DNA of 64,000 nucleotides from an uncultured Gemmatimonadales bacterium (GCA_963783305.1 CAWAMW010000015.1:256001-320000); one strand, 5' to 3'. Positions 35,438-47,692 are shown, counted from the stretch's first letter. Numbers and translations: made by a program. The notes: generated by a model from the sequence alone, not told the origin.

Positions 35438-36535
35438 ATGGCCATGGCGACCATTATCCGGATACGGGAGGTCGGCGCGGAGATCGAAGTCGTTCCGGCC
35501 GTATACGACCCGGCCGTCGTCGAGCATCTCAGAACGATCCCCGGCCGGCGCTGGAGCGCACCCGGGCGCGCGTGGCTCATCCCCCGCACCGCGCAGGGGC
35601 TCGACACGATCCTCTCCCTCCCCGGCGTGAAAATCGATCTGGACCCGGCGCTCGTCCACCTCGTCCGGCGGCCGTACGATCCCGTGGCGCCTCGGGAGGA
35701 CGCCACGCTCCAGCTCCTGCGAAGGGTATCCGAGGAGCTGCGGCTGCTCCGCTACAGCCCCCGCACGCGCAAGCTCTACCTGGGCCATCTGCGGCGATTC
35801 CTCGAACGCCACCCCGCGGCCGCCCACGACCTGACAGCGGGCACGGTGCGCCGACACCTCCTGGAGCTCGAGGCCGAGAACCGCTCCACCTCCTACCTGA
35901 ACCAGGCCCTGAGCGCCATCCGGTTCGCCGCTAAGCTCCTGGGCGCCACCGTCCAGATCGAGAGCGTCGGCCGACCCAAACGCCCGCGCCACCTGCCCTC
36001 CGTCCTCTCGCCCCAGGACGTTCGCCGCATCCTCAAGGCACCCCGCCATCCCCGCCACCGCCTCGCCCTCACACTCGCGTATTCCGCCGGGCTCCGCGTG
36101 GGTGAACTCGTGCGCCTGCGCGTCGGGGACGTCGATTCCGATCGGCGGCTCATCCACGTCCACGAAGGCAAAGGCCGCAAGGATCGGTACACTCTTCTGG
36201 CCGAAACAACCGCCAGGGCACTCTACCCTTTCCTGGATGGCGCCGATGCGAACGACTATATATTCCCCGGCGCCCGCACCGGACGCCACCTCACCGTTCG
36301 CAGCATCCAGAAAGTCTTCGAGCGAGCACTGCGCGACTCCGGCGTCCAGAAGCACGCCACGATCCACACGCTGAGGCACAGCTTCGCCACGCACCTGCTT
36401 GAAAATGGCGTGAGCGTGCGGCATATTCAGGAGCTTCTCGGCCACAGCAGCCCCAAGACGACCGAGATCTACACCCACATCGCCCAGAGCGACCTGCGCC
36501 GAATCACCAACCCCCTGGACGCACCGCTCGACTGA
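35438..36535 (+). CDS. Tyrosine recombinase of the cassette array (HARP-like N-terminus, no IntI-specific insertion)
   Basis: YSPRT..Y, AGLRVGE, GKGRKDR, HTLRHSFATHLLE, LLGH, TEIYTH; adjacent to att array. Confidence 0.93.
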   Translation: MAMATIIRIREVGAEIEVVPAVYDPAVVEHLRTIPGRRWSAPGRAWLIPRTAQGLDTILSLPGVKIDLDPALVHLVRRPYDPVAPREDATLQLLRRVSEELRLLRYSPRTRKLYLGHLRRFLERHPAAAHDLTAGTVRRHLLELEAENRSTSYLNQALSAIRFAAKLLGATVQIESVGRPKRPRHLPSVLSPQDVRRILKAPRHPRHRLALTLAYSAGLRVGELVRLRVGDVDSDRRLIHVHEGKGRKDRYTLLAETTARALYPFLDGADANDYIFPGARTGRHLTVRSIQKVFERALRDSGVQKHATIHTLRHSFATHLLENGVSVRHIQELLGHSSPKTTEIYTHIAQSDLRRITNPLDAPLD

Positions 36536-36561
36536 AGGGTGGATTTATTTCGCCTCCATCA

Positions 36562-36644
36562 AACATCTTAGCGAACACCCATTCGCCAGTCTCACCCAAA
36601 GTCACTACATCATGAACTGGGTTTCGCTAATCCTTTAGTTAAGC
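36562..36644 (+). other. attI-like first site (crossover G^TT at 36638)
   Basis: GTTAAGCGCC at 36638 complements the cassette 1 end GGCGCTTAAC (37323-37332); preceded by TTAGCGAA/TTCGCTAA inverted repeat. Confidence 0.75.
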
Positions 36645-37050
36645 GCCATGCGCGCAGATGAAGTCAACTGGAGCTTGGTCAGCGCGAGCCACGGGCATGG
36701 TCGGCTGTCGGAGGTCGCTTGCAGCTGCGTCAGGCGTGCGTTGACAGGACAGAAGCGCGTGGCGGGCCTAGATGGCTTGCCAGACATGCCGGATTCGCGG
36801 CTGACGCGGCATTCGATGCCGGCGAGGTCGGCGCGGAACACGCTGGCACCTGTTCGGACTGCGGTCGCTCGAGTACCGTCGGCCGACGATGCGGACCGGG
36901 CTCGGTGAGCGTTGCGAAGTTTCGAGGACGTTGCGCCTGGAGGTCGCGGAGCGTCGGATCGCGGTCTGGACGCTCCGATGCGTGTGGCGACGCAAGTCAG
37001 CCTGAGCTCCGAACGCCGTGTAGCTGAGCTCGACACGTCGGGGGACGGAA

Positions 37051-37325
37051 GTGAATGTCTTCAGTCCGTGCGGTTCTGACGTTGAATACTGGGTCGATGC
37101 TGAGCCGCCGGTCCTCCGTGCGCTCCGCGAACGGTACACTGAGTTTGGCCTTCCGCCGTACCAGGTCGTCTTCGTAGCGGTGCGCGGGGAGATTGGGCCG
37201 GTGTTGGACTGCGGCTTCTGTACTGAGTACGACGGCAGTTTCAAGGTGGAGGAACTGGTCGAAATGGACTCGCCGGGCACCGGGGAGTGCGAGACCGAGA
37301 TCGGTGGCCACTCAGGGAGAACGGC
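37051..37325 (+). CDS. Cassette 1: hypothetical protein fragment, probably frameshifted
   Basis: FSPCGSDVEYWV...PYQVVFVAVRG; no stop before att1, start unclear. Confidence 0.4.
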
Positions 37326-37478
37326 GCTTAACAAACGGTTGGCGCCTGCGCGGCCTGCGGCCGCTCCGGAGAACCCGCCGCGGCCGTACTGGGCGCTGGT
37401 GAGGGGCGTGAAGTTTCGAAGGCGGTCGCGCGCTGGAGGTTGTCGGAGCGGCGGTTCGCCAACCTGGAAACGTTATAC
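37326..37478 (+). repeat. attC-like site 1
   Basis: GCTTAAC-AAAC-GGTTGGCG...CGCCAACC-TGGAAAC-GTTATAC. Confidence 0.9.
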
Positions 37479-37506
37479 GCCAGGTGAACGAGTATTGGGG
37501 GGTGCG

Positions 37507-37947
37507 GTGACTGAGTACGTTCTCAATGGTTGGCGCGTGGAGCACGACGCCGGTGCCACGACAGAAGCGTTGAAGCGAGCTCAGTATCGGGGCCCTGAGA
37601 GCTGTGGGTGCCTGCCCTGCCAGAACTTCGTCGCAATGCGTTCCGAAGCGTTCCCGCGCGAGTTCATGGAACTGCTCGGTGAGCTGGGAATCCCGCCGGT
37701 TTCGGAAGTCGAGGTCTATCACAACGCACGGCTTGAAAACGGGAGGCACTCCTACGGAGGGTGGTTCCACTTCGTAGGAAGGGTTGTCGAGGGGCCGGAC
37801 GGGGTCGTAGATCTGGGCAACGGTTTCCAGTTCTACTTCCGGAACGACGCCCATCTTATCTCGAAGGAGATAACCGAGCGCCCCGTGGCACAGTTGGAAT
37901 TCTACTGTGAGCTGCGCTGGGGAATCGCAGCCCAGGAGGCGCTGTAG
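37507..37947 (+). CDS. Cassette 2: hypothetical protein with CxCxxC
   Basis: SCGCLPCQNF, YGGWFHFVG; fills the cassette. Confidence 0.75.
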   Translation: MTEYVLNGWRVEHDAGATTEALKRAQYRGPESCGCLPCQNFVAMRSEAFPREFMELLGELGIPPVSEVEVYHNARLENGRHSYGGWFHFVGRVVEGPDGVVDLGNGFQFYFRNDAHLISKEITERPVAQLEFYCELRWGIAAQEAL

Positions 37948-37995
37948 ATCGGCCCTTCGGGGGAGGCGGGAGGGTCGGGAAGGGGTTCACCCGGC

Positions 37996-38145
37996 GTATA
38001 ACAAACGGTTGGCGCCTCCGCTCGCTACGCGCGCTCCGGAGAACCCGCCGCGGCCGTCTGGAAGCTGGTGAGGTGAGTGAAGGTTCGAAGGTGCTCGCGC
38101 GCTGGAGGTGTGGCGCGGCGGGTCGCCAACCTGGAAACGTTAAGC
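37996..38145 (+). repeat. attC-like site 2
   Basis: GTATAAC...GTTAAGC, same architecture. Confidence 0.9.
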
Positions 38146-38157
38146 GGCATTGGCAAC

Positions 38158-38463
38158 ATGCTCAAAGCCAACTTGAAGTTTAGTCGGGACGAACCAGAAC
38201 AGGTGGCTTTTGGAGATCACCTGCGCTGGGTCGAGTTGTCGCCCGTTGACGTTCGACCAACTAGCGCCTTGGCTAAGCCCTTTGAGGTGTTTGCTGAGTT
38301 AGTGAAGGATTCCGTCATACCGGGATTCATTCATGGCGAAGGACGGTTGGAAGAACACGCCGGCACCGATTCATGGACCGTATCGGCTCGATGCCTTGTC
38401 GGCCGACGATTTCACTTCAGTCCCTCGGACAAGGTTCGACGAAGCCCTCGAGGACTGGCTTGA
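38158..38463 (+). CDS. Cassette 3: hypothetical protein (may continue to 38666 via frameshift)
   Basis: ATG 19 nt after the crossover; overlapping ORF to 38666. Confidence 0.5.
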   Translation: MLKANLKFSRDEPEQVAFGDHLRWVELSPVDVRPTSALAKPFEVFAELVKDSVIPGFIHGEGRLEEHAGTDSWTVSARCLVGRRFHFSPSDKVRRSPRGLA

Positions 38464-38706
38464 AGGGGGAGACTGCGCTTCGACTCCGGAGCTCCGATGG
38501 AGGTGAGGGAGAAGGTCAGGTCGATGTTGAGCGCGATCCCCAAAGAAGCGCCGTGTTACGAGCTACAGAAATCGCTTGGACGGAAGCGATCACGAGTTTG
38601 CGTTTGTCCTTTGGGAGTTCAAGGAGTTCTGTTTTCCAGATGAGGCGAATGGTGTGCTCTGGCTAGTGGTTTGGGCTGCGGATTAAGGGTGTCGCGCACC
38701 AACGCC

Positions 38707-38859
38707 GCTTAACAAACGGTTGGCGCCTGCGCGGCCTGCGGCCGCTCCGGAGAACCCGCCGCGGCCGTGCTGGGAGCTGGTGAAGGTTCGTGAAGTTTCG
38801 AAGGCGGTCGCGCGCTGGAGGTATCGGCGCGGCGGGTCGCCAACCTGGAAACGTTAGCC
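38707..38859 (+). repeat. attC-like site 3
   Basis: GCTTAAC...GTTAGCC. Confidence 0.9.
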
Positions 38860-38881
38860 GTCATTCCGCGATAGGAACTGC

Positions 38882-39109
38882 ATGAGTGTTCTGCAGAGGC
38901 TTGAGCACAGGCGATGGGTGGTGTGGGTCGCCTGGCCGATTTCGGCTTTAGTTCTCCCGATCGCGATTGTTCGAACAGTTGCCGCAGTCCGAGGTTGGGG
39001 TCTCTACTACGCGTTGGACTTGGGCAAGGCACTGCAGATGGGGATCATCATGTTTGGGCCTCCGGTGTTGTTTGAAGTACTGGTCAGGAAAGGGCGAAAC
39101 AACGGCTAA
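38882..39109 (+). CDS. Cassette 4: small membrane protein
   Basis: RBS AGGA, two hydrophobic segments, TAA stop inside the TAAC core. Confidence 0.7.
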   Translation: MSVLQRLEHRRWVVWVAWPISALVLPIAIVRTVAAVRGWGLYYALDLGKALQMGIIMFGPPVLFEVLVRKGRNNG

Positions 39110-39253
39110 CAAACGGCCGGCGCCTGCGCTCCCTTCGGTCGCTCCGGAGTACCCGGCCGTCAGGCGAGCGGATGGTTGGAAAGAAGTCGAGTCGGCGGTG
39201 CCCAAGAGTTCTGGAGGGGTGGAGGCCGGGTCGCCAGCCTGGAAACGTTATGT
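39104..39253 (+). repeat. attC-like site 4 (divergent variant)
   Basis: GGCTAAC...GTTATGT; inner stem ACCCGGCC/GGCCGGGT. Confidence 0.85.
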
Positions 39254-39274
39254 GCCACACGCGGTGAGGTACGG

Positions 39275-39727
39275 ATGGGCAGCCGAACAGGGATCGGTGC
39301 GGTGACCAAGAGCAGCGTCGTAGCAAATGCCCAGAGGCTTGAAGAGGCATTCGGTTCGTGGCCCTCGTTCCACGATGCCGAGGTCCTCACCATGCGTTTG
39401 GATCGGTCCGGTGCCGTTGGGCCGACCCTGGACGCTCAGGTCTATGTGTTCGAAATGACCTCCGAGGTCGATGCGGCGGGCTTCTTCGTGTTGAAGAACC
39501 AAGTCGTCGTGAGTTTGAGGTTCTCCAATGTCGCTCTGGAGAGACTCCGCTGGTTCAACGAGCAGAACGCTCTCTCAGAACTATTCATTGATGAGATCCC
39601 TGACGAGTCCAACGAGGGCCGAACTCTAGCCGTTCGTTTTGAGTCCAGTTATGGCGTAGAGGCGAGTTTCCGCTGTGGCGCAATTGAGGTTTTGGAGGTC
39701 GAGCCGTATCGACCGGAAAAGCAGTAA
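39275..39727 (+). CDS. Cassette 5: Imm50-like immunity protein
   Basis: FGSWPSFHDAEV, FNEQNAL, SSYGVEASFRC. Confidence 0.8.
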   Translation: MGSRTGIGAVTKSSVVANAQRLEEAFGSWPSFHDAEVLTMRLDRSGAVGPTLDAQVYVFEMTSEVDAAGFFVLKNQVVVSLRFSNVALERLRWFNEQNALSELFIDEIPDESNEGRTLAVRFESSYGVEASFRCGAIEVLEVEPYRPEKQ

Positions 39728-39752
39728 GGCTGGGGCTTCTGCAGCGTGCGGC

Positions 39753-39903
39753 ACATAACAATCGGTTGGCGCCTGCGCGGCCTACGGCCGCTCCGGAGAA
39801 CCCGCCGCGGCCGGGTAGGTGCTGGTGAGGGAGTGGCAGTTTCGAAGGCGGTCGCGCGCTGGAGGTTTCGGCGCGGCGGCTCGCCAACCTGGAAACGTTA
39901 TCT
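39753..39903 (+). repeat. attC-like site 5
   Basis: ACATAAC...GTTATCT. Confidence 0.9.
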
Positions 39904-39930
39904 GCCAGTCAGCACAGTAAGAGAGATCAG

Positions 39931-40116
39931 ATGCTTTGGGACTTGCTTCAGCAGGTGCAGATCGGGCGAACGGAGCGGCACGCCGTAAATGTTGATGAGC
40001 GGCTTGCGGCTCTGGAGCGGCAGTTGGACAGAAACAGCAAGGTCTTGGTCGAGGTGATCAAATACCTTGAGAAGCGGGATGGCCGTGATCTCGACGGCGA
40101 CGGGAAGATCGGCTGA
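39931..40116 (+). CDS. Cassette 6: 61-aa coiled-coil protein with DLDGDG tail
   Basis: MLWDLLQQVQI...DGRDLDGDGKIG*; fills the cassette. Confidence 0.75.
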   Translation: MLWDLLQQVQIGRTERHAVNVDERLAALERQLDRNSKVLVEVIKYLEKRDGRDLDGDGKIG

Positions 40117-40142
40117 ACTGCCGTGGTACGGGGCTGACCAGC

Positions 40143-40295
40143 AGATAACAAAGGGTTAGCGCCTCCGCTCGGCTGCGCCGAGCTGCGGAGAACCCGCCGC
40201 GGCCGTCTGGAAGCTGGTAAGCGTTGTGAAGATTCGAAGGCGGTTGCGCGCTGGAGGTTACGGCGCGGCGGGTCGCCAACCTGGAAACGTTATAC
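40143..40295 (+). repeat. attC-like site 6
   Basis: AGATAAC...GTTATAC. Confidence 0.9.
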
Positions 40296-40349
40296 GCCAT
40301 TTGGCCACTTGATACCGTCGAGAGGTTCATGGGCTCCTCAGGCGGGAGG

Positions 40350-40862
40350 ATGCGAGGTGAGCTGGTGGCTTTGGGGGTGGCTGTCTTTTGCGCAGCCGGA
40401 TGTGAAGGTCAAGCCGCACCTGTGCCAGAGGTTTCGCGCGAACACCCGGTCATCCCGGTCGATAGCGGCATCGTCAGGATCGAGTCCGGCGGAAGCGTCT
40501 TCCGGATCAACGTTGAAATTGCCGAAACGCGGGAGCAACAGAGCACCGGGCTCATGGAGCGGCGGGCCCTCGCAGCGGACGAAGGCATGTTGTTCCTGTA
40601 CGCCGAGGAGCAAGCCGATTCGGATTCCTTCTACATGTTTCGAACGAGAATTCCACTAGCGATCGCCTTCGCCGATTCAACGGGTCAAATTGTGGCGACG
40701 CGGGAGATGGAGCCCTGCCCTCACCCGGTTGCCGATTGGTGCGAGCAGTACGCCCCTGGGAGTTCGTACCGCTCAGCCCTCGAAGTAAATGGTGGTTACT
40801 TTGACAGCAAAGGCATCGGTGTCGGGGACCGAATCGTTCTTGAAAAGAGGTTCGGGCAGTGA
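40350..40862 (+). CDS. Cassette 7: DUF192 lipoprotein
   Basis: Lipobox AAGC, VEIAET, GLMER, GMLF, ALEVNGG, GIGVGD. Confidence 0.88.
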   Translation: MRGELVALGVAVFCAAGCEGQAAPVPEVSREHPVIPVDSGIVRIESGGSVFRINVEIAETREQQSTGLMERRALAADEGMLFLYAEEQADSDSFYMFRTRIPLAIAFADSTGQIVATREMEPCPHPVADWCEQYAPGSSYRSALEVNGGYFDSKGIGVGDRIVLEKRFGQ

Positions 40863-40878
40863 AAGAGGGCCAAACGGC

Positions 40879-41029
40879 ATATAACAAACGGTTGGCGCCT
40901 CCGCTCGCTGCGCGAGCTCCGGAGAACCCGCCGCGGCCGTCTGGGAGCTGGTGAGGGGCGTGCGGTTTCGAAGGTGATCGCGCGCTGGAGGTTGTGGCGC
41001 GGCGGGTCGCCAACCTGGAAACGTTAAGC
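40879..41029 (+). repeat. attC-like site 7
   Basis: ATATAAC...GTTAAGC. Confidence 0.9.
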
Positions 41030-41041
41030 GCAATTCCGGAC

Positions 41042-41365
41042 ATGAAAACTGCTTGGGTTCTGATCGTGGGTGGCCTGCTCCTCATCGTAGGGGCTTACGC
41101 TGCCTGGAAGAACCAGATGGACTGGGGCCTTCGTGAGTGCTGTAATACAGGATCGATCGGGCCTGATCTACTCATGTTCGGAATGCCATTCCTAATCGGA
41201 GCGCTCTTGTTCTGGTCGGGTTGGGGTTGGCGGCAGTGCGTGCGTGGCGGCGAGATTCGAGGATACTGTAAGGCAGACGCCGGAACTGCGCTTAACAAAC
41301 GGTTGGCGCCTGCGCGGCCTGCGGCCGCTCCGGAGAACCCGCCGCGGCCGTCTGGGAGCTGGTGA
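41042..41365 (+). CDS. Cassette 8: small membrane protein (reads into att8)
   Basis: MKTAWVLIVGGLLLIVG..., two TM segments. Confidence 0.6.
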   Translation: MKTAWVLIVGGLLLIVGAYAAWKNQMDWGLRECCNTGSIGPDLLMFGMPFLIGALLFWSGWGWRQCVRGGEIRGYCKADAGTALNKRLAPARPAAAPENPPRPSGSW

Positions 41366-41441
41366 AGGTTCGTGAGGTTTCGAAGGCGGTCGCGCGCTGG
41401 AGGTATCGGCGCGGCGGGTCGCCAACCTGGAAACGTTAAGC
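41290..41441 (+). repeat. attC-like site 8
   Basis: GCTTAAC...GTTAAGC. Confidence 0.9.
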
Positions 41442-41491
41442 GCCATGCTCGACTGTCTGCCCGGGGTGCGATGGTCTCGGAGTGGAGGGCG

Positions 41492-41806
41492 ATGAGGAAG
41501 GTTTATTGGACTGCGTACGCCCGGGGCGATCACTACCTAGCTACTCAACAGGTGCTCGATCGGATCAGCGCGTGGGGTATTCTAGCCCAGGTGAATCGGT
41601 ATTCAGACCTGATGGTCAGTGCGGTGGTCGAGGTCGCGGAGGAACGTCTCGGACCCCTGCTTGCCGCGCTTGAAGAAATTGTTGCAGTCGAGCAGGTGGA
41701 AGATCAGGTAGTGGGCCCAGACCACCCCTGCATGGTCTACTTGAACGTGCGCATGCAGGACGGCAAAGGCGATCTGAGTATCGAGACACCGGCTGTGCCC
41801 GGCTAG
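41492..41806 (+). CDS. Cassette 9: hypothetical protein
   Basis: RBS GGAGG; MRKVYWTAY...GKGDLSIETPAVPG*. Confidence 0.75.
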   Translation: MRKVYWTAYARGDHYLATQQVLDRISAWGILAQVNRYSDLMVSAVVEVAEERLGPLLAALEEIVAVEQVEDQVVGPDHPCMVYLNVRMQDGKGDLSIETPAVPG

Positions 41807-41835
41807 GGAGCGTGAGCCCGAGGTGGTCGCACGGC

Positions 41836-41986
41836 GCTTAACAAACGGTTGGCGCCTGCGCGGCCTGCGGCCGCTCCGGAGAACCCGCCGCGGCCGTCTG
41901 GAAGCTGGTGAGGGTCGTGAAGTTTCGAAGGCGGTCGCGCGCTGGAGGTTTCGGCGCGGCGGGTCGCCAACCTGGAAACGTTAACC
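41836..41986 (+). repeat. attC-like site 9
   Basis: GCTTAAC...GTTAACC. Confidence 0.9.
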
Positions 41987-42050
41987 GCCATGTTCCGCTC
42001 GAGGCTTCTGTAGCAGATTAGGGTAGAGAATTCTACGTAGGGGGTCGCCC

Positions 42051-42275
42051 ATGTCTAATGTGCCAATCGAAGAGCTTCTGAAGCTGTCTGTTGCGGAGCG
42101 GATTCAGTTGGTGGAGGACCTGTGGGACAGCATCGCTGCGGACGCCGACGATTTCCCGCTGACTGACGCGCAAAAGGCGGAGTTGGACCGCCGGCTGGAA
42201 GAGCACGAGGCGGACCCAGGCTCCGCAATACCCTGGGCAGAGGTTCGGGAGCGGCTTTACAAGAAGTACGGGTGA
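42051..42275 (+). CDS. Cassette 10: addiction module antitoxin (TIGR02574-like)
   Basis: LSVAERIQLVEDLWDSI, ELDRR, PWAEV. Confidence 0.9.
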   Translation: MSNVPIEELLKLSVAERIQLVEDLWDSIAADADDFPLTDAQKAELDRRLEEHEADPGSAIPWAEVRERLYKKYG

Positions 42276-42568
42276 ATCGCCGGTTTGAAGTCCGACCGCA
42301 GGCGGACGCGGAGCTCGATGAGGCGGCCGCCTGGTACGCAGCTCGATCGCGGGGACTCGGAGCAGAATTCGTTCGGGTGATTGATGCAGCGTTCGCGTCG
42401 ATCGAGAGGAATCCGCGGCAGTTTCCGGTCGTGTACAAGGACTTCCGGAGGGCCGTCGTCCGGCGCTTTCCATATGCAATCCTATTTACCGTATCGGAAC
42501 CCGAGATCGTCATTTGGTCGGTCTTCCACTCCCGGCGTGATCCGAAGCGGTGGCAGAGCCGCGGTTGA
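42272..42568 (+). CDS. Cassette 10: RelE/ParE family toxin
   Basis: ADAELDEAAAWY, GLGAEF, RRFPY, VFHSRRDP; GTGA overlap with the antitoxin. Confidence 0.9.
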   Translation: MNRRFEVRPQADAELDEAAAWYAARSRGLGAEFVRVIDAAFASIERNPRQFPVVYKDFRRAVVRRFPYAILFTVSEPEIVIWSVFHSRRDPKRWQSRG

Positions 42569-42596
42569 TAGCCTCTGGAGGCTGGCAGAACACGGC

Positions 42597-42747
42597 GGTT
42601 AACAATCGGTTGGCGCCTGCGCGGCCTGCGGCCGCTCCGGAGAACCCGCCGCGGCCGTGTTGAAGCTGGTAAGGGGAGAGGTGTTTCGAAGGCGGTCGCC
42701 CGCTGGAGGTTTCGGCGCGGCGGGTCGCCAACCTGGAAACGTTATGC
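42597..42747 (+). repeat. attC-like site 10
   Basis: GGTTAAC...GTTATGC. Confidence 0.9.
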
Positions 42748-42812
42748 GCCATTGCACCGCTGGGCGTACGGCTGGTGAGGATCGTCAGGAGAGACCAAGC
42801 TCAAGGGACGTG

Positions 42813-43970
42813 ATGCCGCGAGAAAAGCAGTGCAACGTGGTTTTGGACGCGAACATCCTCGTGGCCGATGTTTGGATGGCGGGCCGGAGCTTCTCCTATC
42901 TGAGGCGTCATCGATTTCTTGAGCATCGACCGGTAGTGCCTCACGTCGCGTACTTGGAGACGCGAAACCAGCTGAAGTTGAGAGCAGAAGCGCTGATCGC
43001 TCACCGAACGGCCGAGGAAGGTGGTTCCCACGGCAACACCGTTCGGCTACGGCGGCTCTTCAATTGTGAGGATTGTCCGACTCCGGAGCATTGGGATGTC
43101 GATCGAGCTGCGTACAGAAATGGGACGATTTTGCTTCTGGGGGTCGCTGGACGAGTTCGGCGGGATGGTCCTCGACGCGCCCGACGTCGAGATCAGCGAA
43201 ATTACTAACCGTTCTATCGCCCGGAAGCGCCGCATTTTCGCGCGGTGATAAAGGTGTTTCAGGGATACCTCTCATCTGGCTCGGGACGCTCGAATTGGCT
43301 ACACCCGGATTGGTCGTGTCTCATTCGTCACTGCCAGATACCAATGACTTCTGTTGACAAGGGCGGGGTGGAACCGCATCCAGAAATAGTCAGCCGAAGT
43401 GGCGGAGCGGACTGGCGGCGAATTGGAAAATGTTGTTTCACAAGTCCTTGGACGACTTCATTGCCCACTTCGAGTTCTGATCGGTGCCGCGAGTTCGGAG
43501 GCCCTCCAGAGAGCGCTGATCTCGAAAGCACGTTCTCTGGCTTCGACGTTTGGGATTGGCTCGAATCCGAGTTCCCTCGCATTTTCGGCGGCGGAGATGA
43601 ACTTGACATGGTCCAATGGGCCGGCTTTCCGACCCCCGCCTGAAGCGCCGGTTCTCCACAGCGTAGAGCAACTCATTAGCCTGGACATCGCGCCGGGTCA
43701 AGTATCTTCATGAAGACGTGTACCGGTGTGTACTGTGATTTTTCCTTCGTTGGCAATTTCGAGGCTTCGATCGGCTGACTATGACGCGGACTCTGTAGTT
43801 CATCCGAATCAACGCACATGGAAGCGACGAAAGCGATCCTTTCTGGACTGAGGTCGGCCTTCAGGGAGTCGGCACCTGTCGCTAATAGCAATAGATCTCG
43901 ATGTGCGAACGCAAGCTGTTGAGGCCTTACTTCTACCGCAGCCGCTGGAGCACTGGAAGACCTATGAGGG
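42813..43970 (+). pseudogene. Cassette 11: PIN-domain protein, multiply frameshifted
   Basis: VVLDANIL at N-terminus; DKG..RD..IWL and NDF motifs spread over frames; end approximate. Confidence 0.6.
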
Positions 43971-44061
43971 AGCGATTCAACGCCTGGAGCAGGTGAGGAA
44001 CGAAGTGGAGGACGCGAGGACAGCATTTTCAGAGGGTTTGAATCAGGATGGGAGCAACGGC

Positions 44062-44214
44062 GCCTAACAAACGGTTGGCGCCTGCGCGGCCTGCGGCCGC
44101 TCCGGAGAACCCGCCGCGGCCGTCTGGAAGCTGGTGAGGGTTCGTGAGGTTTCGAAGGCGGTCGCGCGCTGGAGGTTATCGGCGCGGCGGGTCGCCAACC
44201 TGGAAACGTTATCT
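44062..44214 (+). repeat. attC-like site 11
   Basis: GCCTAAC...GTTATCT. Confidence 0.9.
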
Positions 44215-44234
44215 GAAACCCCTTAGGAAAGCGG

Positions 44235-44657
44235 ATGGCTGAGACTGACGGTGGGGAAATCTGGTTCCTGAATCGTGGCCTCGTCGTGCTGCGGCCGAAG
44301 CAGCCGTTCGTCGACTGGGTGCGGGAAGCGGATCCGGGACCGGGACCGCCAGTGAGTGAGGAGGTCGCGGGGAAGGCGGTGGAGGCGTTCCTGATCCCGC
44401 AGTTCGATATGACCCCGGATTCGGAAGCGTGGATCCGGGACAATTTCGATCTGATGTTCGAGATCGCTCTGGACAGCTGGTATACGGAGCCGGCGTTATG
44501 GCCGAAGAACCGGGACTGGAAGGAGTTCAACCGCTGGTTCAATGTGGAACTCATTGACGTGGCCTGGGATCTCGTGAATCAGCCACTTTCGAGCGAGCCG
44601 CCGCAGGGTCCAGCAGATCGGGCGGGTGGGAACGGGGCTTCAGATAACAACCGGTGA
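44235..44657 (+). CDS. Cassette 12: conserved-looking hypothetical protein
   Basis: NRGLVVLRPKQPFVDWV, FEIALDSW, WPKNR, FNRWF; RBS AGGA. Confidence 0.8.
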   Translation: MAETDGGEIWFLNRGLVVLRPKQPFVDWVREADPGPGPPVSEEVAGKAVEAFLIPQFDMTPDSEAWIRDNFDLMFEIALDSWYTEPALWPKNRDWKEFNRWFNVELIDVAWDLVNQPLSSEPPQGPADRAGGNGASDNNR

Positions 44658-44794
44658 GCGCCTGCGCTCCCTTCGGTCGCTTCGGAGTACCCCGCTCAAG
44701 AACATGGTGCCGATCGGGGCTGCGGGTAGTTTCGGAAGGGAGCGGCGCCTGGTGAGGTGGCGGAAGCGGGGTCGCCAACCTGGAAACGTTAAGC
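44642..44794 (+). repeat. attC-like site 12 (divergent variant)
   Basis: AGATAAC...GTTAAGC; inner stem ACCCCGCT/AGCGGGGT. Confidence 0.85.
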
Positions 44795-44849
44795 GCAATC
44801 ACTTCCGGATAGCGGGTGCCGAGAGCCGGAGTAAACTGGGGAGTCAGAT

Positions 44850-45203
44850 ATGGACTGGCGTTTGATGATGATGGCCGGAATGGCGCTGCTGATCATGATC
44901 TGGTTCGGCATGGATGCATATCTACGAATCAGGGCCCTTTCGCGTGGGGTAGCGCTGGAGGATCAGGGGGCGGCGAGTGTCTCCCATGTGTATGTGGTCG
45001 CGGCGTGTCGGATCACTGTAGTACTCGGAGTTCCGGCCTTCGTGATCGCGTACGGCGCCGGGGCGGACATCATGTGGGCTGTGGCGGGTCCTCCGGTCGT
45101 CCTCCTCACTTGCGGCTTCGTTGAGTGGGGGACAACGCGTTGGGTCTTCGATCATGATCGACAACAAGCTGGCAGTGTGGACCATAAGCGTCTTGGTGGG
45201 TGA
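44850..45203 (+). CDS. Cassette 13: membrane protein
   Basis: RBS GGGAG, three hydrophobic segments, stop just before att13. Confidence 0.75.
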   Translation: MDWRLMMMAGMALLIMIWFGMDAYLRIRALSRGVALEDQGAASVSHVYVVAACRITVVLGVPAFVIAYGAGADIMWAVAGPPVVLLTCGFVEWGTTRWVFDHDRQQAGSVDHKRLGG

Positions 45204-45207
45204 CTGC

Positions 45208-45359
45208 GCTTAACAACTGGCTGGCGCCTACGCGGCCTACGGCCGCTCCGGAGTAACCGCCGGCATCCGGCGAGGTGGTGGTGAGGGGCGGGAAGTTTCG
45301 AAAGTTCGCGAGTTGGTGAGGTCGTGGAGCGGCGGTTCGCCAGCCTTTGAACGTTATGA
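45208..45359 (+). repeat. attC-like site 13 (divergent variant)
   Basis: GCTTAAC...GTTATGA; GGCTGGCG/CGCCAGCC outer stem. Confidence 0.85.
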
Positions 45360-46030: not shown

Positions 46031-46540
46031 ATGGGCATCGAACGTTACCGCCTCGGGTCCTTCATACGCGCGGGCGCCGTCGGCTTGCTTGTCGTGGGAC
46101 TGGTTGGATGCGGGAAAGGCCAGGGAGACCCGACACAGCCGGAGGTCCATGCGCCCGCTGAGGAGCTCGAGGGGACATGGAGCTGGGTACGGTCCGTCGA
46201 TGTGAACACCCTGGATCTCCACACTCCAGGCGCCGACGATTTCCAGGCAGAGCTTGTCTTCGTCGCCGACTCCGAGCGGGAGGGGAGTTACGTGTACCGG
46301 CGTACGGGAGCCCCGGAGGTAAACGGTCGCTTCGGTATCGGCTCGGAGGATTCCCCCGGGAATGACTTCATCGCCATCGACCACCCCATCGATTTCCTGG
46401 AGAGCCACGCGTGGGTTGTGGCAGGAACGGACAGTCTGTGGCTGGGTGGCGTGTTCGAGAATGGCTACAACTCCCTGTACGCGCGGGTTTCTGCTTCGCC
46501 ATCCCCAGATTCCTCGTTGCCGGCTCAGAAGGGATTGTAA
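46031..46540 (+). CDS. Hypothetical lipoprotein
   Basis: Lipobox LVGC, LEGTWSW, RBS GGAG. Confidence 0.75.
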   Translation: MGIERYRLGSFIRAGAVGLLVVGLVGCGKGQGDPTQPEVHAPAEELEGTWSWVRSVDVNTLDLHTPGADDFQAELVFVADSEREGSYVYRRTGAPEVNGRFGIGSEDSPGNDFIAIDHPIDFLESHAWVVAGTDSLWLGGVFENGYNSLYARVSASPSPDSSLPAQKGL

Positions 46541-46602
46541 GAGCGAGAAGTATTGGCGCAACGCTGGAACGTCAAGCGCAATTAACGTGAGGAGGCGCGG
46601 TC

Positions 46603-47190: not shown

Positions 47191-47297
47191 ACGGCTGTTC
47201 CGGTGGTGAGGTCGCTGTAGGTCCGAAGGTGCTGGAGCCCCGAACCAGCGTTCGGCGGCGCACGGACCTCACTGGTAGTTACGGAAAGGCTTCGCTG

Positions 47298-47530
47298 ATG
47301 GAGACGCGAGACCCGGTGGTTGAGTATCTGGACACGTCGGTTCTATGGTATGGCGAAGGCGATGGACGTGACTCGGATCATCGTGGATGGAGCCCGAGCG
47401 TGTGCCCAGACGCGCTATGAGCTCGAGCCGCCCGGTGGCCGCAGTTTCGAAAGCCACGTCGCCGAAGTGTTGGAGGTGAGCGGCGGCAGGATCACTGCGC
47501 CTGGCATCTACTTCGACAGCGCACCCCTTC
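47298..47530 (+). pseudogene. SnoaL/NTF2-like remnant
   Basis: IIVDGARAC...VAEVLEVSGGRI...IYFDSAP; start in another frame. Confidence 0.5.
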
Positions 47531-47692
47531 GCTCCCTTCGGTTGTTGTGGAGTACCCGGCCGGCAGGCGGATCGGTGGCTGGGAGTGTGCGCATGCCCGG
47601 AAATCGGACCGTTCGAAAGGTGGCCGCTCGAGATGATCGATCCTACATTCTCACCATCGATAGGCCGATTTGAACCAGCGAGCGGAAGGCAC

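Follow-up and report, generated by a model that had tools for sequence, protein, structure and literature searches.

In classical integrons, the I2 helix of the integrase docks the extrahelical bases of the folded attC site, and this docking blocks the second strand exchange; in current accounts, integron integrases moved from double-stranded to folded single-stranded substrates through the gain of this helix (PMC7790495). The extrahelical bases are placed on the R''-L'' arm, where they direct the choice of strand (PMC2727003), and the unpaired features of classical attC sites have also been proposed to act indirectly, by stabilizing the bottom strand (PMC5027507). Branched distal structures of long attC sites have already been published, as has the bottom-strand 5'-GAA-3' tip that most mobile-integron attC sites carry (PMC2727003, PMC5027507). 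Here we analyze an array of attC-like repeats in a 64,000-nucleotide stretch of DNA from an uncultured Gemmatimonadales bacterium (GCA_963783305.1 CAWAMW010000015.1:256001-320000; the whole stretch is called the window below, and positions are counted from its first letter). These repeats are predicted to fold with a constant side hairpin, the arm, next to the L box, and lie downstream of a tyrosine recombinase that lacks the I2 insertion.

The window-type sites have much in common with classical attC sites (VCR with VchIntIA, attC-aadA7 with IntI1): inverted R'' and R' boxes with AAC/GTT, an L box, an unpaired spacer, a crossover at G|TT of R', a structure conserved above sequence, a GNA/GAA bottom-strand triloop and branched distal parts. 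Classical sites have extrahelical bases, whereas nearly all window-type sites have none in or next to the L box and have a fixed, covarying arm instead. The classical branch is a variable tip, and the window-type branch a constant part of the core. The partner enzymes also differ, since a classical IntI docks the extrahelical bases through its I2 insertion and the window-type recombinase has no I2. We give an even chance to a joint reading in which the repeats are the recombination sites of an integron-like gene-cassette platform and the side hairpin would act as a bottom-strand-only landmark by the L box, taking over the role of the extrahelical bases.

An array of attC-like repeats with a side arm

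The window holds 13 direct repeats of 152-155 nucleotides (nt) on the + strand, whose outermost boxes, R'' of the first repeat and R' of the last, delimit 37326-45359, with a single small open reading frame (ORF) between neighboring repeats; the products encoded include Imm50, DUF192 and a ParE/antitoxin pair. The repeats end in ..TAAC on the left and GTTA.. on the right, and all 13 sites have the form TAAC...GTTA. The R''/R' consensus RYYYAAC/GTTRRRY is loosely kept, with GTTATAC, GTTAGCC and GTTATCT also present. In 10 of the 12 adjacent pairs, the tail 3' of the R' GTTA is complementary over 5-6 nt to the R'' flank of the next site (2 and 0 nt in the remaining two pairs), and it is complementary to the R'' flank of its own site in only 1 of 13. 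Read from the sequence, this exchange footprint indicates that crossovers at G|TT in the right-hand R box delimit the cassettes, as in integrons. The footprint also sets the orientation of the sites, with + as top strand and - as bottom strand, R'' on the left and R' on the right. The 13 sites are as follows, with arm sequences written for the bottom strand.

37325..37479, + strand: site 1; arm 37345-37372, GCGGCC-GCA-GGCCGC; 165.1 bits (covariance model)
37995..38146, + strand: site 2; arm 38015-38042, GCGCGC-GTA-GCGAGC, with one G.A
38706..38860, + strand: site 3; arm 38726-38753, GCGGCC-GCA-GGCCGC
39103..39254, + strand: site 4, divergent; arm 39123-39150, GCGACC-GAA-GGGAGC, tandem G.A/A.G; 129.6 bits; minimum-free-energy (MFE) fold without the junction
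39752..39904, + strand: site 5; arm 39772-39799, GCGGCC-GTA-GGCCGC
40142..40296, + strand: site 6; arm 40162-40191, 7-bp stem GCTCGGC-GCA-GCCGAGC, a compensated insertion
40878..41030, + strand: site 7; arm 40898-40925, GCTCGC-GCA-GCGAGC
41289..41442, + strand: site 8; arm 41309-41336
41835..41987, + strand: site 9; arm 41855-41882; 182.9 bits, the best-scoring site
42596..42748, + strand: site 10; arm 42616-42643
44061..44215, + strand: site 11; arm 44081-44108
44641..44795, + strand: site 12, divergent; arm 44661-44688, GCGACC-GAA-GGGAGC, tandem G.A/A.G; 119.5 bits
45207..45360, + strand: site 13, divergent; arm 45227-45254, GCGGCC-GTA-GGCCGC

Along the bottom strand, the R' box is followed by a spacer of ~7 nt and by L' (GGTTGGCG), to which the 5' half of an inner stem is joined directly. 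Some 57 nt further on, the 3' half completes this stem; next come TCT and the side arm, which runs straight into L'' (CGCCAACC), then a spacer of ~4 nt and R''. All 13 window sites have an outer stem, a side hairpin and an inner stem. The original prediction, made from the sequence of the window alone, had described an outer stem GGTTGGCG/CGCCAACC, an inner stem ACCCGCCGCG(G)CCG/CGGCGCGGCGGGT, side stems varying with compensation (GCGGCC/GGCCGC, GCTCGC/GCGAGC, GCTCGGC/GCCGAGC) and top-strand loops of TGC, TAC or TTC closed by C-G. We recovered both stems and all three side-stem variants, and every loop was C-G closed (TGC in eight sites, TAC in three, TTC in two). In addition, three arms are imperfect: those of the sites at 39103 and 44641 (GCGACC/GGGAGC, with a tandem G.A/A.G center) and that of the site at 37995, with a single G.A. 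MFE folds of the bottom-strand DNA gave a three-way junction with the side arm in 11 of the 13 sites; for the exceptions, 39103 and 44641, the branched form is absent under nearest-neighbor parameters and the arm pairs only if tandem G.A/A.G is allowed.

The arm has the form CC-G.A-G:N-A.G-(5-8 bp)-GNA loop. It is 25-28 nt long, lies on the R''-L'' strand and comes directly after a fully paired 8-bp L box, starting at the ninth position. Elsewhere on the R''-L'' arm, one bulged base, a bottom-strand C or T, recurs in most sites ~10 bp into the inner stem, for instance at 41885-41897 (top strand); it is the only feature resembling an extrahelical base, yet it is far from the L box. The "variable" region between the arms of the inner stem (41897-41953 in one example) does not vary here as its name implies, being exactly 57 nt in 45 of the 130 sites aligned below; on the bottom strand this 57-nt region is 42% C, is predicted to be unstructured and has the conserved blocks CCTCCAGCGCGCGA, CCTTCGAAAC and CTCACCAGCTTCCAG.

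The arm is constant and covaries across the family

A covariance model built from the bottom strands of the 13 window sites, R1, matched 25 sites on four contigs of this genome and sites in 22 of the 73 genomes of the family, representing 15 of its 37 genera. We aligned 130 sites (alignment A2) from 28 sources: the window, 20 fetched stretches and seven loci of earlier searches. Among the 129 distinct sites, L' and L'' both measure 8 nt with no inserted base in 119, and the linker from L' to the inner stem is 0 nt in 125. The arm likewise joins L'' with 0 nt and is separated from the inner stem by a 3-nt TCT/ACT linker. The central spacer is unpaired, ~7 versus 4 nt.

A hairpin directly before a G-N-A-G(G) flank and L'' could be parsed in 115 of the 130 sites. 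On the bottom strand, 102 of these arms have a GNA loop (GCA 51, GAA 42, GTA 8, GGA 1), six a GNNA loop and seven another loop, and the loop-closing pair is C-G in 108. Their stems come in 27 variants of 5 to 8 bp, one of which is present in 40 arms. In short members of the family (95-123 nt), a CCC-GNA-GGG mini-hairpin stands in place of the TCT linker and the sites fold into four-way junctions with GNA-type tips on several arms; the arm adjoining L'' is the constant element. An R1 search of 21 loci with distant relatives of the recombinase in other phyla returned no site of R1 type (one chance-level row, E 0.12), a null to which R1, being too specific there, lends little meaning, and four of these loci had no repeat arrays.

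For the covariation analysis of the arm we set aside 14 of the 130 sites with an odd arm or L'' length. Of the 116 left, 80 have the standard 41-nt segment; the other 36, whose stem or loop differs in length or which carry an additional hairpin, were left out. The 80 standard arms (58 distinct) were aligned without gaps with MAFFT (alignment A3), a choice made to avoid an alignment fitted to the structure. Across the nine Watson-Crick pairs of the arm, 85.2% of cells are paired versus 72.9% after shuffling. The covariation score is 0.255 versus 0.094 +/- 0.011 for shuffled alignments, a value reached by none of 500 shuffles, and it drops to 0.013-0.044 when the partners are slid by 1-3 columns; six of the nine pairs show changes on both sides. 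The relatedness of the sequences inflates the shuffle figures, and more trust can be placed in the slid control and in the number of stem variants, 27. The covarying side stem of the original prediction is thus borne out, with covariation far above both controls. The flanking pairs also covary around the tandem G.A (GCGACC/GGGAGC, GCGAGC/GCGAGC, GTGAGC/GCGAAC, GCGAAC/GTGAGC, GGGAGC/GCGACC); sheared G.A pairs depend on their flanking bases (CGAG contexts).

Over whole sites, 93.4% of cells are paired in A2, an alignment that was fitted to the covariance model and so leans towards the model structure. In the same alignment, changes on both sides are seen in seven of the eight L-box pairs and in all eight pairs of the proximal helix of the inner stem. 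The distal inner-stem helix shows them in all four pairs, with only 79.5% of cells paired.

That the sites are related by descent, with one stem variant in 40 of 115 arms, might suggest that the arm is functionless baggage inherited within one repeat family. We find this hardly credible: pairing survives through 27 stem variants, compensated insertions bring the stem to lengths between 5 and 8 bp, and the arm persists in 15 genera.

The non-Watson-Crick features of the arm point to the bottom strand

The arm is not symmetrical between strands. Among the 58 distinct standard arms, read on the bottom strand, the GNA loop is present in 56, G.A at 11.31 in 56 and A.G at 13.29 in 53. The two central positions of the stem are Watson-Crick paired in 31 arms and form tandem 5'-GA-3'/5'-GA-3' in 22, while tandem C.T/T.C occurs in none; in the covariance-model alignment, the arm has G.A 31 times and C.T once. 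A reading on the top strand turns the G.A features into pyrimidine-pyrimidine mismatches and the GNA loops into TNC. Structurally, the G.A mismatches and the GNA loops are reasonable in the bottom strand alone, which supports selection on single-stranded DNA, as the original prediction had proposed: the stems covary and the non-Watson-Crick features are one-sided. Judging from these patterns, selection probably acts on a folded single strand. Nearest-neighbor energies for the arm are lower on the bottom strand in 49 of the 58 distinct arms, but the mean difference is small (0.55 kcal/mol) and whole sites have the lower energy on the top strand, two results that weaken the case for such selection.

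We considered whether the hairpin might instead act in RNA, as a 3' stabilizer or terminator of cassette transcripts, or in duplex DNA, as a palindromic protein-binding site. The 31 of 58 distinct arms with a fully Watson-Crick center would also fold in top-strand RNA, and the flanks CCGGAG and GNAGG are conserved in sequence. In top-strand RNA, however, 22 of the 58 arms would hold tandem C.U mismatches, the loops would be UNC, and no U run comes after the hairpin; as for a duplex site, the GCGAGC...GCGAGC variants are direct repeats and not palindromes, and the sequence of the half-site varies freely while pairing is kept. Both forms of this explanation therefore appear very improbable.

The tips of the arm resemble known DNA mini-hairpins. 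GCGNAGC and GCGNNAGC mini-hairpins are described as extraordinarily stable in DNA (PMC13037366), and the same is reported for d(GNA) loops closed by a C-G pair (PMC3201870). The arm tips are likewise C-GNA-G or C-GNNA-G, as in d(GCGNAGC) and d(GCGNNAGC), and many arms hold GCGNAGC exactly (for instance GCGCAGC and GCGAAGC). Another study of a CGAG-rich region mentions sheared pairs (PMC10085684), and the GCGAGC/GCGAGC arms set 5'-GA-3' opposite 5'-GA-3' as do tandem sheared G.A pairs in CGAG contexts. The known mini-hairpin and G.A motifs were examined as isolated oligonucleotides, whereas those of the arm lie within a natural recombination site and are known from sequence.

Such stability suggests another explanation, namely that the arm is a folding aid only, a fast and very stable mini-hairpin that sets the register or protects a GC-rich strand of 150 nt and is not read by the recombinase. 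The match to the extraordinarily stable motifs (PMC13037366, PMC3201870) is in line with it, as is the indirect stabilization of the bottom strand proposed for the unpaired features of classical sites (PMC5027507). It leaves unexplained why the arm is always on the R''-L'' strand directly against the L box, and why it occurs only with an insertion-less recombinase; we hold it to be unlikely.

A recombinase without the I2 insertion and with a predicted HARP-like domain

Upstream of the array and co-oriented with the cassettes are the two further elements of the platform, giving the order recombinase, putative docking site, cassettes:

35438..36535, + strand: tyrosine recombinase gene, Xer-like, without the IntI insertion; start ATG at 35438 inferred from conservation in six orthologs
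36638..36651, + strand: attI-like crossover point G|TTAAGCGCCATG, ~100 nt after the stop codon of the recombinase

The integron integrase model TIGR02249 matches the recombinase in two pieces, model positions 1-178 and 235-314, with 108.6 and 93.7 bits (202 in all), the cut-off being 265; the window recombinase has no counterpart of model positions 179-234. IntI4 (2a3v) also aligns in two pieces, around a gap of ~46 residues that is the place of the I2 insertion. The closest solved relative is the archaeal XerA 4a8e, to which the recombinase aligns from end to end (145.6 bits), and the top NCBIfam match is recomb_XerA_Arch (213.8 bits, cut-off 220). Orthologs with 50-65% identity lie directly upstream of, and co-oriented with, R1 arrays in all five other genomes checked.

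The point at 36638 is a putative docking site: the tail after the GTTA of the attI-like G|TTAAGCGCC shows 6 nt of complementarity to the R'' flank of site 1 (37325). The stretch from the stop codon of the recombinase to this point (36536-36651) is visibly lower in G+C than its surroundings.

The recombinase has an N-terminal extension of ~85 amino acids (35438-35692) with a motif IPGRRW..W.P that is conserved in the six orthologs. Pfam HARP (PF07443) is matched in three of these orthologs (best E 0.0033), and a profile of the domain matches the HARP structure of SMARCAL1, 4o66 (E 0.078). The AlphaFold model (predicted local distance difference test score, pLDDT, 84) has strands at 5-12, 15-20, 38-40, 45-49 and 64-68, two main helices at 25-32 and 52-59, and a short third one at 70-75. 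In Foldseek, the top rows were XPB N-terminal domains (E 0.13-0.4) and 4o66 (E 0.4); the XPB N-terminal domain we take to belong to the same group as HARP. In VIA-align the top structure was T4 UvsW, with Z 6.8 and an rmsd of 2.1 over 60 residues, followed by XPB at Z 5.4; values of Z below 8 are common by chance. A look-up of the domain in the ESM Atlas gave unnamed clusters only (scores 0.81-0.83).

In its published description, the HARP fold comprises two helices and five strands, and UvsW has such a domain N-terminally (PMC4666394). Each score is weak but the scores converge, and we predict that the N-terminal domain has a HARP/UvsW/XPB-like fold. The HARP or substrate-recognition domains of SMARCAL1, T4 UvsW and archaeal XPB, its top structural neighbors, sit with a helicase motor, whereas the predicted domain is fused to a tyrosine recombinase.

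Classical integrons in the same family keep classical sites

Classical IntI genes above the TIGR02249 cut-off are present in 20 of the 73 genomes of the family and provide a comparison within it. At the one locus examined, in genome G030, a repeat of ~125 nt of a different type lies beside a classical IntI, with the recombinase co-oriented with the array. A covariance model of this repeat, R2, found sites in 31 of the 73 genomes and in 17 of the 20 with a classical IntI; only two of these 20 have R1 sites. In 11 genomes the coordinates place R2 sites no more than a few kb from a classical IntI gene, and two genomes (G008 and G009) carry both recombinases, each beside its own type of site.

We analyzed 34 distinct, complete R2 sites in bottom-strand orientation, having set aside six of 40 (four opposite-strand re-matches and two truncated sites). 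All 34 have two unpaired bases on the R''-L'' strand, one being a C that follows 4 bp of the L box and the other an N six positions beyond it, a result favored by the R2 model, which contains these bulges; all 34 lack the side arm and their stem is unbranched there. R1 and R2 sites thus share a host family and sometimes a genome, as well as the asymmetry of the spacer (~7 versus 4 nt), which is therefore not special to the branched-site system, and they differ in that R2 sites have two extrahelical bases, measure ~125 nt, are unbranched and go with a recombinase that has the insertion.

In the genome of the window, no IntI was found above the family cut-off. Three weak R2 matches (E 1.9e-7 to 1.9e-4) lie at C15:355792-357770, ~55 kb downstream of the array.

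Other features of the array and the genome

Remnants of sites are found at both ends of the array, the first of them within the first cassette:

36842..36990, + strand: degenerate site remnant, with repeats of families D9 and D11 that correspond to blocks of the side arm and of the variable region; no R boxes

Further degenerate remnants follow the last intact site (46540-46585, 47204-47238, 47526-47582), and the array seems to decay towards 47.6 kb. The sole long "cassette", at 42745-44060 (1.3 kb), has fragmented ORFs only, and its start shows 0 nt of complementarity to the next R'' flank; it possibly corresponds to two fused or decayed cassettes. The cassettes at 42051-42568 and 39176-39727 include the antitoxin/ParE-type toxin pair and the gene for the Imm50 immunity protein, and toxin/antitoxin and immunity genes are content typical of chromosomal cassette arrays.

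The 12 other branched sites of this genome lie at C16:793779-801031, C12:265-1253 and C14:7771-8329. A whole-genome model search found no recombinase on these three contigs, where no further search was made.

Contigs from four DNA runs of soil and sediment were mapped on the region. Many of them stop or diverge at the borders of the sites, which fits a site family common to many cassettes, and their summed depth is far higher over site-holding bins than over cassette bodies (for instance X2: 696 versus 0-3). We do not count them as evidence, since contigs of mixed organisms cannot show recombination.

Discussion

The window system has neither I2 nor extrahelical bases, and it has an arm on the same side of the site together with a domain predicted to be of a branched-DNA type; the arm therefore most likely marks the bottom strand and docks the recombinase bound to the L box. 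In the mechanism that we propose, the very stable mini-hairpin would fold first once the bottom strand is single-stranded, and would fix the register of the site. One monomer of recombinase would then sit on the R box and another on the L box, and the arm with its junction would report to the enzyme which strand is held. This reading of the strand would most likely occur through docking of the HARP-like domain, whose fold occurs in enzymes that recognize branched DNA.

In position, the arm agrees with the extrahelical bases, being on R''-L'' and at a similar distance from the R box, which fits the idea of the original prediction that the junction replaces them; what supports this replacement is a correlation between site type and recombinase type. 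Going further, the system might represent a second integron lineage, in which a lock between the HARP domain and a DNA junction replaces that between the I2 helix and the extrahelical bases. We regard this as a tentative proposal, on the doubtful side. Were it true, cassettes could be recombined as single strands with no need for the I2 insertion.

Several observations weigh against the arm as a bottom-strand landmark. The advantage of the bottom-strand arm is only 0.55 kcal/mol on average (-5.6 versus -5.1). Whole-site energies are lower for the top strand (mean -33.6 versus -32.1; the bottom strand is lower in 40 of 129), and on these nearest-neighbor energies we rejected, for whole sites, the simple candidate that the bottom strand is more stable. 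Another candidate strand marker, a surplus of G.T over A.C, proved too weak for use both in the L box (23 versus 16) and in the inner stem (54 versus 35). No arm could be parsed in 15 of the 130 sites, mostly weak, truncated or degenerate matches. All scores for the HARP fold are middling, and the N-terminal 92 amino acids of the window recombinase itself have no match in Pfam, HARP included. R1 and R2 are each specific to a type of site, so that the missing cross-matches are partly built in and adjacency to the recombinase is the independent part of that comparison. Finally, the 0-nt linker between arm and L'' lets the arm stack on the L box, in which case it would not be an "extrahelical" element.

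This last point leads to a different view of the fold. By the linkers, stacking of the arm on the L box would be equally allowed as stacking of the inner stem, and the arm might then be the true continuation of the L stem. The core would be a short hairpin like attC-aadA7, with an R box, a spacer, an L box, a 10-bp stem with G.A and a GNA tip, and the long inner stem with its variable region would be an accessory branch from the R'-L' strand. The arm joins L'' with 0 nt just as the inner stem joins L', and the 3-nt TCT/ACT falls between arm and inner stem; 10 bp lie between the spacer and the irregular G.A-N-A.G block, and in R2 sites the second extrahelical base is likewise 10 bp in. Most mobile-integron attC sites are reported to end in a bottom-strand 5'-GAA-3' tip (PMC5027507), and the short members of the window type are perfect four-way junctions that can stack either way. 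However, conservation and covariation are as strong in the inner stem as in the arm, and sites of every length class have this stem; we consider this view rather unlikely, if less so than a mere folding aid.

In the literature searched, we found no prior account of a junction arm that is constant, covaries and directly adjoins the L box, nor of mutual exclusion between such an arm and extrahelical bases or its pairing with an insertion-less, HARP-fused recombinase. These bacteria hold a large shuffled cassette system in which folded attC-like sites without extrahelical bases go with an enzyme without I2, and in which a conserved junction arm and a predicted HARP-fold domain are found instead. 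Tools that require the IntI insertion would probably list such arrays as integrase-less cassette clusters. Within this family, classical sites stay with classical IntI, and the two systems offer a natural paired comparison for how tyrosine recombinases choose strand and structure.

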